Below are positions 28,027 to 39,611 of a stretch of 64,000 bases of DNA, piece after piece. Where the stretch lies: contig CAVYRH010000004.1 of the NCBI GenBank assembly GCA_963770835.1, positions 352,001 to 416,000 of the forward strand, read 5' to 3'. This DNA comes from an uncultured Pseudomonadota bacterium. GTDB taxonomy: Bacteria > Oederibacteriota > Muellerivitia > Muellerivitales > Muellerivitaceae. The position numbers and the translations under genes were made by a program. Numbering within the stretch: the stretch's first letter is position 1; each line of letters begins with the position of its first letter. Under the pieces are notes generated by a model. It saw only the letters and a program-made list of their open reading frames with translations. It did no database searches and was not told where the DNA came from.

Positions 28027-29250
28027 ATGGATCCAATCCTAACCACAGCGGCGCGCGCCCTCGCCGCGGGGGACAGCTTTAGCGCGCTCAACCGGGTCGC
28101 CTTAAGGAACGACGCTCCCGCGCTGGCGCTCCGGGGCATCGCCATGGCCCAGCTGGGCGACCTTGCCAAGGCGAAGGCCCTCCTGAAAAAGGCGGCGTCG
28201 GCTTTCGGCCCCCAAGAAGGCGTGGAGCGCGCCCGCTGCGTGGTGGCCGAGGCCGAGATCGCGCTGGCCTCGCGGGACCTGGGCTGGAGCGCCATGGCCC
28301 TCCATTCGGCGAAGATAACGCTCGAAAGGCGGGGGGACCGCGTGAACGCCGCCCAGGCGCGGTACATCGAAATAAGGAAGCTCCTGCTCATCGGGCGCCT
28401 CGGGGACGCCGAAAAAAAGCTGAACGGGCTCGACCCCGAAAACCTCCCGCCCGCCTTGAGGGCGGCCCATTACCTGGTGGCGGCGGGGATCGCGATGCGC
28501 CGCCTGAAGACAAAAGAAGCGCGTTCCGCGCTGGCCCTGGCCGGGAAAGCCGCGCGGGATTCCGGGATTTCCGCGCTGGTTACGGAGGTTGAAAAAGCGG
28601 CACTCCTCCTGGAAACCCCCGCGGGCCGGCTTCTCTCACGGGGCAAGGAAAAGCTCCTGAGGCTCGGCGAGGTCGAGGAACTGCTCCAGTCGGGAAAGCT
28701 TGTCGTGGACGCCTGCCGCTACGCTGTGCGCGGCCCCCAAAAAACCGTCCCGCTCGCGGGGCGCCCGACCCTCTTCGCCATCGCGCGCGCTCTTGCGGAA
28801 GCCTGGCCCGGGGATGTTCCCCGGGATGCCCTGATGGAGAAGGCCTTTGGTGCAAAACTTTCCGACGAGTCGTTCCGCCTGCGGCTGCGGGTCGAGGTGG
28901 TGCGGCTTCGCGGGAAACTGCGGGGCCTGGCGGAAGTGAAAGCCACGAAGCAGGGTTTCGTCATGGCGCCTTTGGGCGCGCGGGAAATCGCCGTGCTGGC
29001 CCGGCCCGTCGAGGAACCCCAGGGGGCGGTGCTCGCTTTTTTGGAAGACGGCGAGCTTTGGTCCAGCTCCGCCTTGGCGCTGGCCCTCGGGTCCAGCCAG
29101 CGCACCGTCCAGAGGTCGCTCGATTCGCTGGAGGAAGCGGGCAAGGCGCAGTCCTATGGTAAAGGGCGGGCGAAACGTTGGGTGACGCCGCCCCTGCCGG
29201 GCATCACGTCGATTTTGCTGTTACCCAACCAACTACCGGTGGAAGGATAG
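28027..29250 (+). CDS. Putative transcriptional regulator with C-terminal HTH
   Basis: AARALAAGD..ALNRVALR N-terminus; WSSSALALALG.SQRTVQR.L HTH; divergent from the SDR. Confidence 0.8.
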   Translation: MDPILTTAARALAAGDSFSALNRVALRNDAPALALRGIAMAQLGDLAKAKALLKKAASAFGPQEGVERARCVVAEAEIALASRDLGWSAMALHSAKITLERRGDRVNAAQARYIEIRKLLLIGRLGDAEKKLNGLDPENLPPALRAAHYLVAAGIAMRRLKTKEARSALALAGKAARDSGISALVTEVEKAALLLETPAGRLLSRGKEKLLRLGEVEELLQSGKLVVDACRYAVRGPQKTVPLAGRPTLFAIARALAEAWPGDVPRDALMEKAFGAKLSDESFRLRLRVEVVRLRGKLRGLAEVKATKQGFVMAPLGAREIAVLARPVEEPQGAVLAFLEDGELWSSSALALALGSSQRTVQRSLDSLEEAGKAQSYGKGRAKRWVTPPLPGITSILLLPNQLPVEG

Positions 29251-29926: not shown

Positions 29927-30371
29927 TGAGTAACCCGTAAACAAAAGAGGTCAGGCCAAAAGTCGCCCGTGACCCCGCGGGTCCGCAAAGGTGAGAAATA
30001 GCGGATGAGTTTGTTTACGGAGAATCGAACATTCAATGAAACAATTATTTTGTGGGCGACAGGGACGGGAATTTTAAAACGAAGCTATTGGGTTTAACGT
30101 GAGAGCTTTTAGATTTAACGGGTATTGACGAACCCTTTATTTAGGCCCTATTGCTTTGCCAAGGGTAAAAAGTGGTATATTCATTAAAACGATTTAGTGC
30201 CTTTGAAAAGCGGTTTCATGAGAAGCGATGAAACATTTCGAGTTTTGTTGCCAATTGTTCCGCAACCTTTAACCAGTGTATTCGGGTGACACTTTGAACA
30301 GGTCTCCACAAAACTTATTTTTCAAAACGAAAACGTTCTTTGGTTCCCGGCTTAAAACGTCCCGGGGCGAA

Positions 30372-33263
30372 ATGAACTTTTTCTTTCTTTCGCTTTTTGT
30401 GCTTTTGGGTTCCACTTTTTTCGGTCCAACTCCCGCGCAAGCCGCTCCTCCCCTGCTTAAGGTTTCCGGAAACGAAATCGTCACCGCCAGCGGCGGCTGC
30501 ACCGTGCGCTTGACCGGGGTGAATCTAGATTCTTTGGAATGGGACGTACCGCCAGGGGACAATCCGGCCGGCGGCGATGGGGTCCTGACAATGCTGCAGG
30601 AGGCGGTCAAATATTGGAATGTCAATTGCGTCCGCATCCCCCTGGACCAGGACTGGTGGGACGGCAACGCGCAAAGCTCCAGGGGTTCCACCAGCCAATC
30701 GGGATACCAAAGCTTCGTGGACTCCCTCGTGGCCTACTGCAACGCCAACAACATCTATTGCGACCTGGACCTGCAATGGTCCGGCGACGGGCCCACGGGC
30801 TCGGCCACCGGGCAATACTCCATGCCTGATGAGAACAGCCTGGTTTTCTGGGCCAGCGTCGCCGCCCGTTACGCCAACAACCCCTCCGTGCTCTTCGACA
30901 CCTTCAACGAGCCCTACACAACTTCCTGGACCGTCTGGCTGAACGGGGGCACGGCCTCCGAGGGCTTTACCACGCCCGGCCTTCAGTCCATCGTGAACAC
31001 CATCCGGGGCACTACCGCCAGCGCCGGCAGCACCCTGGCCAGCGGCACCAACGCCGAAAACATCTGCATCGTCGGCGGCCAGCAGTATTCCTATTATTAC
31101 GTGGGCATGAGCCCGGTGGTGGATAAGGCCGGGGGCAACGGCATCGTCTACTCGGCCCATATCTACAACAACAAGGGCACCAACACCCCGGCGGGTTGGG
31201 AGTCCAACATCGATACGGCCCTCACCTACGGCCCGGTGTTCATCGAGGAATTCGGGAATTCCGCCAATACCACCGACGGCGGCACTTTCGTGAACAGCGT
31301 GATTACCTTCATGAACGGCACAAACGACAAGAATTACGTCTATGGGGGCATGGCTTGGGACATGGATATCTCGGCGACGCCTCTCCTGCTTTCGGCCTGG
31401 TCCTCAACCCTGTCCGCCCCGGTTTCCACCGGCAGCGGCTGGGTGCTGACGTCTTATGAAGGCCAACAGGTCTATGGCTGGCTGAAGGGACTTACCCATC
31501 CAGGTTGCTCCTCCAGCGGCGCCACGGCGACCCCCACCGCCACGGCGTCCTTCACCAAAACATCCACGCCGACCGCGACCGCGACGGCGACCGCCACAAA
31601 AACCGCCACGGCCACGGTTACCCCCACGAAAACCAGCACTCCCACCAGTACGGCGACCAGCACCGCCTCCAGCACCCCCACCTTTAGCCGGACCAACACT
31701 CCCACGAATACCCCCACCGCCACACCCAGCCATACGGCCACCCCCACGGCCACGAATACCGCCACACCCACCGTGACCAATACGCCCACCAAGACCGCAA
31801 CGAACAGCCCCACGAATACATCGACTTCGACCCCCACTCCAACGTCCACGAATACCCCGATGAACAGCCCAACGAATACGGCTGCCAGCACCGCGACGAA
31901 TACATTGACGGCTACGCCATCAAGTACTCCTACGGGCACGGCCACCAAAACGGCCACGAACACACCCAGCAACAGCCCTACTTCCACCTTCTCCCCAACC
32001 CTTAGCCCTACGCCCACGACTACCCTGCCCAATACGGCGACTTTAACCGCGACATCCACCGCAACCCGTACCGCCACGGCAACCACCACGAATACCGCCA
32101 GCAACAGCCCAACTGCCACCTCCCCATTGACCCCGACCGGGACAGCCACCAACAGCCCCACCGGCACCTCGACGGCAACGGCCACCCATACGCCGACGGT
32201 TACGCCGGCCAATACATTGACGGCTACGCCGTCAAGTACTCCTACGGGCACGGCTACCGCGACGCTGGTCAACACCGGAACCCCGACCAGGACCAGTACC
32301 TTGACCCCCACTTCCACCGCCACGGCTTCGACTACGGCGACCCCTACCCTCACGCGGACGCTAACGCCGGCAAACACAGCTACCGCCACGGCTACGCCTT
32401 CGGCTTCGCCAACTCAAACCGCCACTTCAACGGCGTCGGTGACTCCCACTTTCAGCCCCACGCCGGTGACGGTTTCGGCCTCGCAAGGGTTGAGCCCGCC
32501 GGGTAACTCCATCCAAATTCCGGGGGCTTCCGGGGTACCCATCCAACAGATCCAGGTGAACAATCCCAGCGGCAATCCGGTGACGCTCACCAGTATCACC
32601 CTCTCCGAGACGGGAACCCCTCCCACCGGGATCACATCGATCAATTTATCAGTCAATGGAACGCTTATCGCCACCGCCGCCTTCAGCGGGCCGGACGCCA
32701 CCCTCAGCTTCAACAGCGCCATTCCGGGGGCCAATGGAGCAGTGACCTACGAAGTCACCGCGAACTTCTCCTCCTCTTCACCGGCGGGGAACTATTCCTT
32801 CAGCGCCACGGACGCCACGGGAAGCAACGGCCAGGCCCTTCTCTTTACCGGATTGCCCGTTCCAGGCGCCACGGTCACCATCGCCGCCGCCACGCCGACT
32901 TATACCCCCAGTGCGTCGGCCACCCCAACGACCACTAAAACTTTAACGCCACCGCCGACGGCCACGGCTACCCGGACCCCGGCCCCTCCGGCCAAACCAG
33001 TGCTTTATCCCAACCCCGTTTCCACGGGGGGAGTGGCTCAGCTCAATCCGGGGTTGACGTTTGAATCGAACGTGAGCATCGAGATCTTCACGACCGCCTT
33101 CCGGAAGGTAGCGGATTTAACTTATTACAATGTCCAACCGGGGGTCAGCGTGCCCATTCCTTTGGCCGATGAGTGGGGAACGCCCTTGGCCAACGGCCTT
33201 TACTATGTGGTGGTGCAAACCAACCGGGGCCGGAATATCCTCAAATTGCTGGTCCTGCGGTAA
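30372..33263 (+). CDS. Secreted GH5 glycoside hydrolase with very long Thr/Pro linker, Ig-like domain and C-terminal sorting-like domain
   Basis: Signal peptide; L.GVN, VRIP, FDTFNEP acid/base, HIY, FIEEFG nucleophile; YPNP...TTAFRK...ANGLYY...KLLVLR tail. Confidence 0.9.
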
Positions 33264-36707: not shown

Positions 36708-37638
36708 GTGCGCTTAAAGTATTTCCGTTTCCTATTGGCCGTTCCCTTGGTTTTGACAGGGATGGCAGGCAAGGCGGTTTCAAAACCCGTGTCGAAAACC
36801 TTCCAAAATCCCATCCTCACCGGCTTCCATCCCGACCCCAGCGTTTGCCGGGTGGGGGAGGATTTTTACCTCACGAACTCCACCTTCGAGTTCTTCCCGG
36901 GCCTTCCCATCTACCACAGCCGCGACCTGGTCCATTGGGATCAGGTCGGCAACGCCTTGGACCGGCCCAGCCAGCTTCCCCTTAAGGGGGCGACGGACTC
37001 CGGCGGCCTCTACGCGCCGACGCTGCGCTATTGGAAGGGGACCTTCTACCTGGTCTGCGATAACGTCAGCGGGGGAGGGAATTTCATCGTCACCGCCAAG
37101 GACCCGGCGGGCCCCTGGTCCGAACCGGTCTGGGTGAACGACTACGGGATCGACGGCTCCCTATTCTTCGACGATGACGGGAAGATCTATTACCACCGGG
37201 CGGGCGCCGACAACGGGAACGGCATTTCCCAGGGGGAATTGGACCCTTCCACCCTGAAGCTCAAGGCACCCTTGAGGAAGATCTGGGAATATCCGGGCGA
37301 ATGGAACGAAGGCCCCCATCTCTATAAGGTCAACGGGACCTACTATCTGATTTCCGCGACCGGCGGCACCGAAAGCCACCACCAGGAAGTCGTGGCCCGA
37401 TCCAAAAGCCCTTGGGGCCCCTTCGAATCCAGCCCCCACAACCCGATGCTGACCGAGCGTGACGACCTGAAAAGCCCCATCCAATGCGCCGGCCACGCAG
37501 ACCTGTTCAACGCCCCCGATGGAACCTGGTGGGCGGTTTTCCTGGGGACTAGGCCCCAAGACGGAATGTCCGTGCTGGGCCGGGAGACCTTCCTGGCGCC
37601 GGTGGAGTGGACGAAGGATGGCTGGCCCATCGTGGGCA
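36708..37638 (+). CDS. GH43 beta-xylosidase/arabinofuranosidase, exon 1 (catalytic propeller)
   Basis: NPIL.GFHPDPS, YAPTLRY, IDGSLFFD, EGPHLYK, GHADL, GRETFLAPVEW; interrupted by a group II intron. Confidence 0.9.
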
Positions 37639-38439
37639 TCGTGCCAGAGGAGGGTTTGCAGAGCCAGCAGGTGAGGGAGTAGGCCGATGAGGGTCAACCC
37701 AAGTCCTGACCAGGTAATCACCAGAGAGCCTGGAAGTCAGCCCCCGGCGTAGGATCGAGAGGTCCTGCCCGAAACGGGGTCATAAACCTCATTTAGTGAG
37801 GGAACAATCCAGCAGTCCGCAACATCAAGTGAATCCTGCCGCTTCGTGAATGGGACACCGAAAGGTGCAAGGGGATGCCGAGCCGCGTGTCTACTGGCGA
37901 AGGCCACGATCCCGCTGAAGAATCTGGTAGCAAGCGGGGCAAGTCCTCCGGAGTATGGGGAACGGAATGTTGGAAAGGCTATGCAAGCAAGCTGGGAGAT
38001 CCTACCCGCCAAAAGACTTGCCGCTATAAGGCTAAAACCGAAAAGAGGCAAGGGTGGGAGGAAGTCGGAGGGGGTCACAGTACCGATGAAGGGGTGGACA
38101 ACAAAACCACCCTGAGGGAAGGACCCCTGCTTCAACCATGTGTCTCAAAGAAGGTAGGCGCTGGAGCATGCCCCAAAAAGGGCCAACAACTCTGTAGTAC
38201 CAAAGCGCGAGGCCTTTGACAACAGGCACTATGCCGAGCGGCCAAGGGGGAAGTCGAACCTGTAAAGCCGCCGGAGGAGAGGTTGTCGGAAAGCCGTATG
38301 ATCGAAAAGGTCACGTACGGTTTGACGAGGGGGCGCTGGAAACGAAGTGATGAGGGAACCTCGTTGGGGCACGGAACCGGAAACGGGGAAACAGATCAAG
38401 GAACCCTCTGCACACCATCGCGCCAGTGCTCTACTCTGC
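37639..38439 (+). mobile_element. ORF-less group II intron (IIB-like), 801 nt
   Basis: DV AAGCCGTATGATCGAAAAGGTCACGTACGGTTT (38291-38323); DVI stem with bulged A38433; EBS1 TGTCTAC (37888-94) pairs with exon GTGGGCA; EBS2 ATGGG (37850-54) pairs with CCCAT; removal restores the frame. Confidence 0.92.
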
Positions 38440-39611
38440 AGGACCATCACGTGGCTTTGGAAATGGAAGCGCCCAAGCTCCCACCACCCCCTCGTATGCC
38501 GAAGCCCGGCGACCGTGAGAACTTCAGCGCAAGGGGGTTGGGGCCCAGGTGGCTCCATATCCGCAATTTCGACCCGAAGAATTTCTCGTTTGAGGAGCGC
38601 GAAGGCTACCTGCGTATTCGGGCCGCGAAGGATAGCCTCGACAACCGTTGGGAAGGACCGGCTTTCGTGGGCCAACGCCAACCCGCTTTCCGTTTCACCG
38701 CCCGCACCGAAATGGAATTCGCTCCCCAACAAGACGGGGAAGAAGCGGGTCTTTGCGTGAGGGCCAACGAGGGCAACCATTACGAGATCGGCATAAGGAA
38801 GTTCGAAGGGAAGACCCAGCTATTCGTGCGCAACCGGATTATGAACCGGGAATATCTGATGGCCCAAGAGCCGGTGGCCTTAGGCCCGGTCCAATTGGAG
38901 ATATCGGGGTCCGAGGAGAAGTACCAGTTCGCCTGGTCCGCCGACGGCAAAACCTGGTCCACCCTCGCGGTTTGCCCCACCGCCGACCTTTCCCGGGAAA
39001 AAGCCGGGGGCTTTACCGGTACCACCCTCGGCCTCTACGCCACCGCCAACGGTAGGGATTCCCAGGCCTACGCGGATTTCGAGTGGTTTGAACTGCGTCC
39101 CGGTGTTGCCCCCCAACAAGGCCCGCTTACGCGCCGCCCCTCACCGACCCCATTAACCCCCTCGGACCATTGGCGAATCCTCACGAACCGGGAGGACTAC
39201 CGGGACAAGGCGGGTCTGGATTGGTCCTGGGATGTGGGTTATTCGGGAGGTGAGACCAACCGGAGCTGGGGGGGTATCGGGGGGGCCACGGACCAGGAGC
39301 TTTTCCAGCACGAGCGCTTCGGCAAGGATTTCAGCTATACCCTTCCCGTCTTGCCGGGCAAGTACCAGGTCCGCCTCAAATTCGTGGAGACGGCCGTGAA
39401 GAACAAGGGGGAAAGGGTCTTCGACGTCCTCATCAACGGGAAAAAGGCCCTGACTGGTTTTGACATCCTCCAAGAGGCGGGTGGCCCCGATAAGGCCCTC
39501 GAGAAGACATTCCGGGACGTCGCCCCCGACGCCCAGGGACAGATCACCCTTCGGTTCATCGCGTCCGCCGGGGACGCCAAGGTCTGCGCCATCGAGATCG
39601 AGCGCCAATAA
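38440..39611 (+). CDS. GH43 exon 2: C-terminal concanavalin-like beta-sandwich plus malectin domain
   Basis: FVGQRQ, EEAGL, GGFTG.T.GLYA; LFQHERFG.DFSY.LPV.PG.Y.VRL.F.E...R.FDV.ING; spliced product 700 aa. Confidence 0.88.

Follow-up and report, generated by a model that had tools for sequence, protein, structure and literature searches.

Where does the group II intron that splits a GH43 gene in this DNA begin and end, and do its unusual first and penultimate bases change together among related introns? The intron is an ORF-less group IIB element of 801 nt (positions 37639–38439, plus strand, of the 64,000-nt stretch analysed, hereafter the window). It carries no RT gene and lies within the GH43 gene, with PF04616 encoded upstream and PF17851 and malectin downstream. 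Its 5′ junction reads ...GUGGGCA/UCGUGCCAG at 37639 and its 3′ junction ...CUCUACUCUGC/AGGAC at 38439; the ends are thus UCGUG...GC (U1, penultimate G) and do not conform to the GUGYG...AY consensus, which is not universal. The earlier note on this DNA had seen U as the first nucleotide and G as the penultimate one (n−1), and had read them as a natural compensatory pair that may define an unusual intron lineage. Both bases are as described; position 2 is altered too (U2→C), a change that the note had missed and that many G1 sisters share (GCGUG). Our reading, held with considerable confidence, is that a known end contact occurs here in U·G form, in a mobile intron lodged at a palindrome mimic and with ends that have partly been recombined. 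The parts of gene and intron are:

36708–37638, plus strand: 5′ exon, GH43 glycoside hydrolase catalytic domain (ORF; PF04616, E 3.9e-92)
37626–37630, plus strand: putative IBS2, CCCAU (CCC(A/G)U upstream of most copies; complementary to 37850–54)
37632–37638, plus strand: IBS1, GUGGGCA, an off-target mimic of the palindrome arm GUGGACA (EBS1 pairing 7/7; target consensus)
37639–38439, plus strand: ORF-less group IIB intron, 801 nt (nine other copies: 800) (Rfam matches, host frame, copy comparison)
37639–37643, plus strand: 5′ end UCGUG, with U1, C2 and canonical G3-U4-G5 (register from GCGUG/GUGUG sisters)
37644–37647, plus strand: putative 5′ strand of the domain I closing stem, CCAG, pairing with CUGG at 37992–37995 (complementarity)
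37850–37854, plus strand: putative EBS2, AUGGG (5-bp match to IBS2)
37888–37894, plus strand: EBS1, UGUCUAC, in the loop of stem 37882–85/37895–98 (7/7 pairing; loop varies with the exon in relatives)
37996–38066, plus strand: domain II (fold)
38067–38069, plus strand: J2/3, GGA, with γ = G38067 (γ/last-base covariation in relatives)
38070–38128, plus strand: domain III (fold)
38130–38289, plus strand: shrunken domain IV with an RT-start remnant, ATG at 38168 (resembles the RT ORF start of sister C11:107425)
38290–38323, plus strand: domain V, AGC triad, intact (RF00029; fold)
38327–38436, plus strand: long domain VI with bulged branch A38433 at −7 (fold)
38438–38439, plus strand: 3′ end GC, penultimate G (partner of U1) and last C (γ′) (host frame, γ covariation, copies)
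38440–39611, plus strand: 3′ exon, GH43_C2 and malectin domains, with A38440 as putative IBS3 (PF17851, PF11721; orthologs)

The Rfam model RF02003 (D1–D4) matches 37695–37827 with 57.8 bits, in agreement with the D2 and D3 folds, and RF00029 (D5/D6) matches 38289–38439 with 41 bits (gathering 40). The EBS2–IBS2 pairing is a putative one of 5 bp.

The boundaries at 37639 and 38439, which the earlier note had proposed, are fixed by four independent lines. The first is the host frame. All 96 in-frame junctions were enumerated and compared with intron-less orthologs, which read GWP(V/I)VGKDHHVALEM or near it; the GWP motif is present in 13 of 14 such loci, 10 of them reading G-x-x-HH and three NGDHH. 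The junction 37639/38439 alone restores PIVGKDHH, which matches L207, L208 and L213. The second line comes from target sites. After 72 empty palindromes the next base is A in 40 rows, G in 29, C in three and never T, so UC must be encoded by the intron. The third line concerns the other end: the base 3′ of ...CUCUGC in 35 GC-ending copies is A in 29 and G in five, with one missing at a contig end; because A and G alternate there, A38440 is exonic. The +1 exon base is hence a purine in 34 of 35 GC-ending copies, and inspection by eye gave no EBS3 base that co-varies with it. Fourth, EBS1 (37888–94) pairs 7/7 with 37632–38, right up to A37638. Such 7/7 matches number 73 in the 64-kb window, one of which ends at 37613; EBS1 and EBS2 are jointly matched in register twice, and one of the two is the intron junction. 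The fourth line also includes the branch A38433, bulged from D6 at −7 in the fold, and the behaviour of γ described next.

Two expectations about the ends were borne out. The last C keeps the γ–γ′ pair, as G38067 fits C38439, and γ tracks the last base in relatives through compensatory changes: G goes with C, A with U (L061) and C with G (L224). Likewise, positions 3–5 (GUG) fit GUGYG. The five columns before a gap-free CCAG are occupied by GCGUG, GUGUG or GCGCG in the sisters, which makes UCGUG a GUGYG with two substitutions and no extension. A literal GUGYG search of 37401–37900 returned nothing, in line with the warning that callers based on this motif would miss the boundary. No exact pair of filled and empty alleles was found in the genome among 16 copies checked, and ortholog frames were used instead. 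Contigs of four of 20 sequencing runs yielded no exon joint; the RNA contigs represent relatives or are partial, and are uninformative either way.

Some local features deserve mention. At 38175–38179 the window has five A, against four in the nine other short copies, and contigs of runs X2, X3 and X14 carry the shorter, four-A form; the fifth A is either a private variant or an assembly slip. A cryptic 7/7 IBS1-like site without IBS2 is found at 37607–37613, 25 nt upstream of the true junction, and is a possible mis-splicing site. An empty site that fits EBS1 and EBS2 and is followed by C lies at 28699–28711. A large secreted protein is encoded at 30276–33263; by eye, it has a glycoside-hydrolase-like head, a long T/P linker and a short C-terminal tail.

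The source genome (G000) contains 28 matches to the intron, and both ends are present in 18: 14 are U·G, four are G·A and none is mixed. Ten are ORF-less U·G copies of 800/801 nt that differ by no more than one base, located in an A run; two beyond those ten carry an insertion, and the remaining both-ended copies encode an RT with RVT_1 and GIIM and no endonuclease match. ORF-bearing U·G sisters retain RVT_1 and GIIM intact, also with no endonuclease match, and one is found in 10 copies in genome G073. Since near-identical copies are found at many sites, recent mobility is implied. Most copies are inserted at the right edge of a 28-bp palindrome; G000 has 82 palindrome rows, 72 empty and 10 filled by the intron family. 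The GH43 coding sequence mimics the right arm of this palindrome, which makes the window copy an off-target insertion.

The palindromes occur in co-oriented arrays, about 0.7–2 kb apart (G000 contigs C3, C11, C12, C15, C16, C17 and others), and no integron integrase scored over the cut-off in G000. Five copies (C11:93912, C26:878013, C2:200661, C26:616734 and C3:39444) carry in domain IV some 1.5 kb of inserted DNA with a reading frame in common, probably an IS. A second group II intron family, with the 3′ end ...CUCGACCCUAC, has 12 copies in G000 at the palindrome centre (C3:3661, C11:1951, C20, C24:24237 and eight more places). It inserts 17 nt upstream of the site used by the GH43-intron family, and both families share one palindrome in four places. 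A third lineage (GCGCG...AU; L061:960–985, genome G004) occupies yet another position of the same palindrome.

Do the two unusual bases co-vary? A metagenome scan with a single 3′-end pattern in which n−1 was left free supplied at least 122 loci, and together with plasmid relatives these gave a curated set of 50 distinct full-length introns. Among the matches listed, 21 of at least 124 3′-end matches end in GC, two or more of which do not belong to introns. A genome-contig search with one RT returned one locus; viral sequence scans gave eight matches, none of them introns, and nothing with the L128 RT as query. The 5′ ends were set by EBS1 pairing and positions 3–5 only, or by eye against close relatives, a procedure that reproduces the published lengths of Ni.ha.I1 (1911) and Rh.js.I1 (2173) and is one base off for Sr.me.I2. 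Left out before counting were L220 (5′ end lost to IS66), L223 (GC end, 5′ end unresolved) and L229 (3′ end interrupted), as well as L095 (short, ORF-less, uncurated), all one-ended loci, and near-duplicates (L048, L064, L111, L138, L155, nine G073 copies and extra G000 copies). L223 is a Leptospira plasmid intron with a GC end (350–370, 2313–2323), in which no 5′ motif can be recognised ahead of the domain I stem.

The covariation of position 1 with n−1 is real. The 50 introns comprise 33 G·A, 12 U·G, one C·G, two G·U, one U·A and one U·U, and G·G does not occur. All 13 introns with G(n−1) start with U or C, and G(n−1) is found in none of the 35 G1 introns. In the GH43-intron clade, relatives included, 38 of 38 full-length copies are matched (29 U·G, 9 G·A). 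On an RT tree of 41 rows, built without L057 and the ORF-less introns, n−1 changes six times, and the six independent pairs on well-supported branches are all concordant (sign test, median p 0.031). Before L105 (the G·A sister of the C·G intron) was included, a tree of 40 rows had yielded five pairs, with p 0.06.

Introns far from the clade belong to the same pattern. Host frames are restored in L128, L161 and L084, which are distant U·G and C·G introns (two transposase-type motifs and one RT WADD motif), and no recognisable match was found for the L109 host frame. L084 (1676–3720) is a natural CUGCG...GC intron whose insertion point, in the RT gene of another intron, closely follows the WADD codons. 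L105, its G·A sister, has the same insertion position, and the two are joined with support of 100/98.

The coupling is not absolute, as one U·A intron (L233) and one U·U intron (L054) exist; hence, U1 does not require G. L054 and L232 are related introns that end in G with γ = C, after ...CAUG exons, and L054 starts UCGCG. We had considered L054 as U·G or U·A and dropped both readings because γ = C places the end one base further. On sequence grounds, L233 and L054 offer a stepwise path from G·A through U·A to U·G, G·G never having been seen. Among the introns studied, the U·G state has more than a single origin. A cautious count would be three origins in our data (the GH43-intron clade, L109/L128/L161, and L084) plus two published cases.

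The idea of an unusual intron lineage fared differently. Opposite-state sisters, 93–95% identical over D1–D3, coexist in G000 (14 U·G copies against four G·A), and the end pair marks a toggling state, not a lineage. Four of the six n−1 changes fall inside the mosaic clade of the GH43 intron, and four double mutations would be unlikely at about 5% divergence; we therefore think that recombination probably spreads an existing end pair within this clade, and the four changes may amount to a single origin moved in this manner.

This admits an explanation in which selection plays no part: one ancestor gained both changes, and since then intron interiors have been exchanged by gene conversion or RT template switching, leaving the ends with the resident copy. 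If this were so, co-occurrence would say little about pairing. The number of double changes, probably too many for point mutation alone at such divergence, speaks in its favour, as does the shuffling of 5′ and 3′ ribozyme halves among subtypes: either of two 5′ types can be joined to either of two domain VI types, and both end states are seen with each 5′ subtype and with two of the four D6-base haplotypes (the CGAAGG 5′ subtype was counted from direct copy comparison, not from the 5′ pattern). Most genomes, moreover, carry one state only (GC/AC ends: G073 13/0, G010 5/0, G021 3/0, G002 0/5, G012 0/2). Linkage of this kind probably explains part of the toggling inside the family. It leaves unexplained, however, the U·G introns L109, L128 and L161, which form a clade of their own, the pairing of a C·G intron with a G·A sister on the tree, and the published U·G introns TeI4h and UHB.I2; we regard it as improbable as the account of the whole pattern.

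Far less credible is that the intron begins with the GUGCC at 37641, either directly or behind a 2-nt 5′ extension like those of fungal rRNA introns and C.te.I1. GUGCC does resemble GUGYG, and PMC4024640 describes shifted 5′ sites 1–33 nt upstream of GUGYG. Such a junction, however, yields PIVGIDHH and an AG end, and the corresponding motifs of the sisters occupy the same five columns before CCAG. In the same paper, shifted-site introns lose EBS2, the branch A and mobility, all of which the GH43 intron appears to keep. Independent decay of two bases in a dead copy is scarcely tenable either: the window copy is ORF-less and some relatives are damaged (D5 is deleted in L034 and L059, and IS insertions occur), but D5 and D6 are intact and both changes are common to 14 G000 copies and to RT-bearing multi-copy introns in G073.

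Returning to the U·G form of the end contact, the events may be pictured as follows. An ORF-less group IIB intron, mobile until recently and of the endonuclease-less kind (former class F/g-group-like), would have landed in the GH43 gene at a palindrome mimic. It would splice at U37639/C38439 through branching at A38433, probably with help in trans from the RTs of ORF-bearing sisters; this help is suggested by the related RTs in the genome and by the habit of ORF-less introns, which usually use RTs in trans. U1 and G(n−1) would form the known non-Watson-Crick end-to-end contact that places the 3′ splice site for step 2, replacing G·A, and G(n−1) would be tolerated only with U or C at position 1. 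U1·G(n−1) thus appears to be a working substitute for G·A, and spread to many sites, almost unchanged, indirectly suggests that U·G-ended introns branch, splice and reverse-splice well enough. Within the bacterial family, recombination seems to have carried U·G from one ribozyme or RT subtype to another without breaking up matched ends, presumably under selection on the end pair.

At either end, the switch in state lies no more than 8–9 nt from bases that are diagnostic of a subtype; even so, all 38 full-length copies of the clade are matched. One speculation, about which we are rather doubtful, is that the two ends are a heritable unit swapped between co-resident introns independently of the interior. 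RT template switching on reverse-spliced RNA with its ends anchored to the target could bring about the exchange. U1 might be favoured because it removes the +1 purine and blocks re-insertion before a resident copy; head-to-tail tandem junctions, expected if G1 copies re-attract insertion, number zero. If the speculation were true, these introns together with L084 would show the step-2 contact in three natural states (G·A, U·G and C·G), a group II counterpart of the contrast between GU-AG and AU-AC.

These data give natural, replicated support to an end contact that had been established with mutants and a single crystal structure. Near-identical G·A and U·G introns, plus a C·G one, are ready constructs for testing the geometry of the contact. 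On the practical side, programs that locate the boundaries of endonuclease-less IIB introns should allow for UCGYG/CUGCG...GC, and the split GH43 gene is liable to be mis-annotated as two ORFs.

A G1·A(n−1) contact between intron termini was reportedly described by Chanfreau and Jacquier (1993) and Costa et al. (2016). According to PMC4238363, PMC3669008 and PMC8283771 (section 34), the first base contacts the penultimate one once the lariat has formed, and the two are important for step 2. Table 1A of PMC8283771 lists U-G both as the natural pair of TeI4h and as a compensatory mutant, whereas C-G is given there solely in the latter role. The same two positions are involved here, and both listed compensatory pairs are natural among the relatives; our evidence is comparative and consists of repeated switches on a tree, and the C·G pair has no natural example in that table as available. 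TeI4h (Thermosynechococcus elongatus, CL/IIB1) differs from close G·A sisters in its U·G ends (same table), which the accessible text of the TeI4h paper leaves undiscussed. UHB.I2 (IIB) has UUGCG..GU ends, noted merely as off-consensus in the available part of PMC7923331, and sits after an attC site in a cassette array; UUGCG starts are also reported in plant introns (PMC6867995).

We found in the literature no phylogenetic test of position 1/n−1 covariation, no UCGUG and no natural C·G, with most subscription papers outside the search and a consensus figure in PMC4028801 that may show such variants. The pair proposed in the earlier note is natural and co-varying, as claimed; it is not new (TeI4h, UHB.I2 and a laboratory suppressor), nor is its coupling absolute.

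Among other known systems, C.te.I1 and fungal rRNA introns likewise have a splice site off the literal GUGYG, but their spacer is absent in the GH43 intron, in which the substitutions fall within the motif and neither the branch A nor mobility has been lost. The available sections of PMC4424553 state that ORF-less bacterial introns usually depend on related RTs in trans. The former class F/g1–g4 introns of Toro and Martinez-Abarca (2013; PMC3552965) resemble the GH43-intron family in having an RT-maturase of about 430 aa without endonuclease match and full-length sisters of about 2 kb. A domain search of the sister RTs gave RVT_1 and GIIM alone, as expected for a class F/g1–g4 RT-X protein without endonuclease, but the RT clade joins none of Ni.ha.I1, Rh.js.I1 and Sr.me.I2, the three named references on the tree. 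Natural U1·G(n−1) ends are shared with TeI4h and UHB.I2, from whose available descriptions the GH43 intron differs in its UCGUG start, C end, lack of an ORF, endonuclease-less RTs and 28-bp palindrome target. The U·G end pair is already known, and the natural C·G intron L084 is a small addition; what this family adds to TeI4h and UHB.I2 is ten near-identical mobile U·G copies and replicate comparative support.
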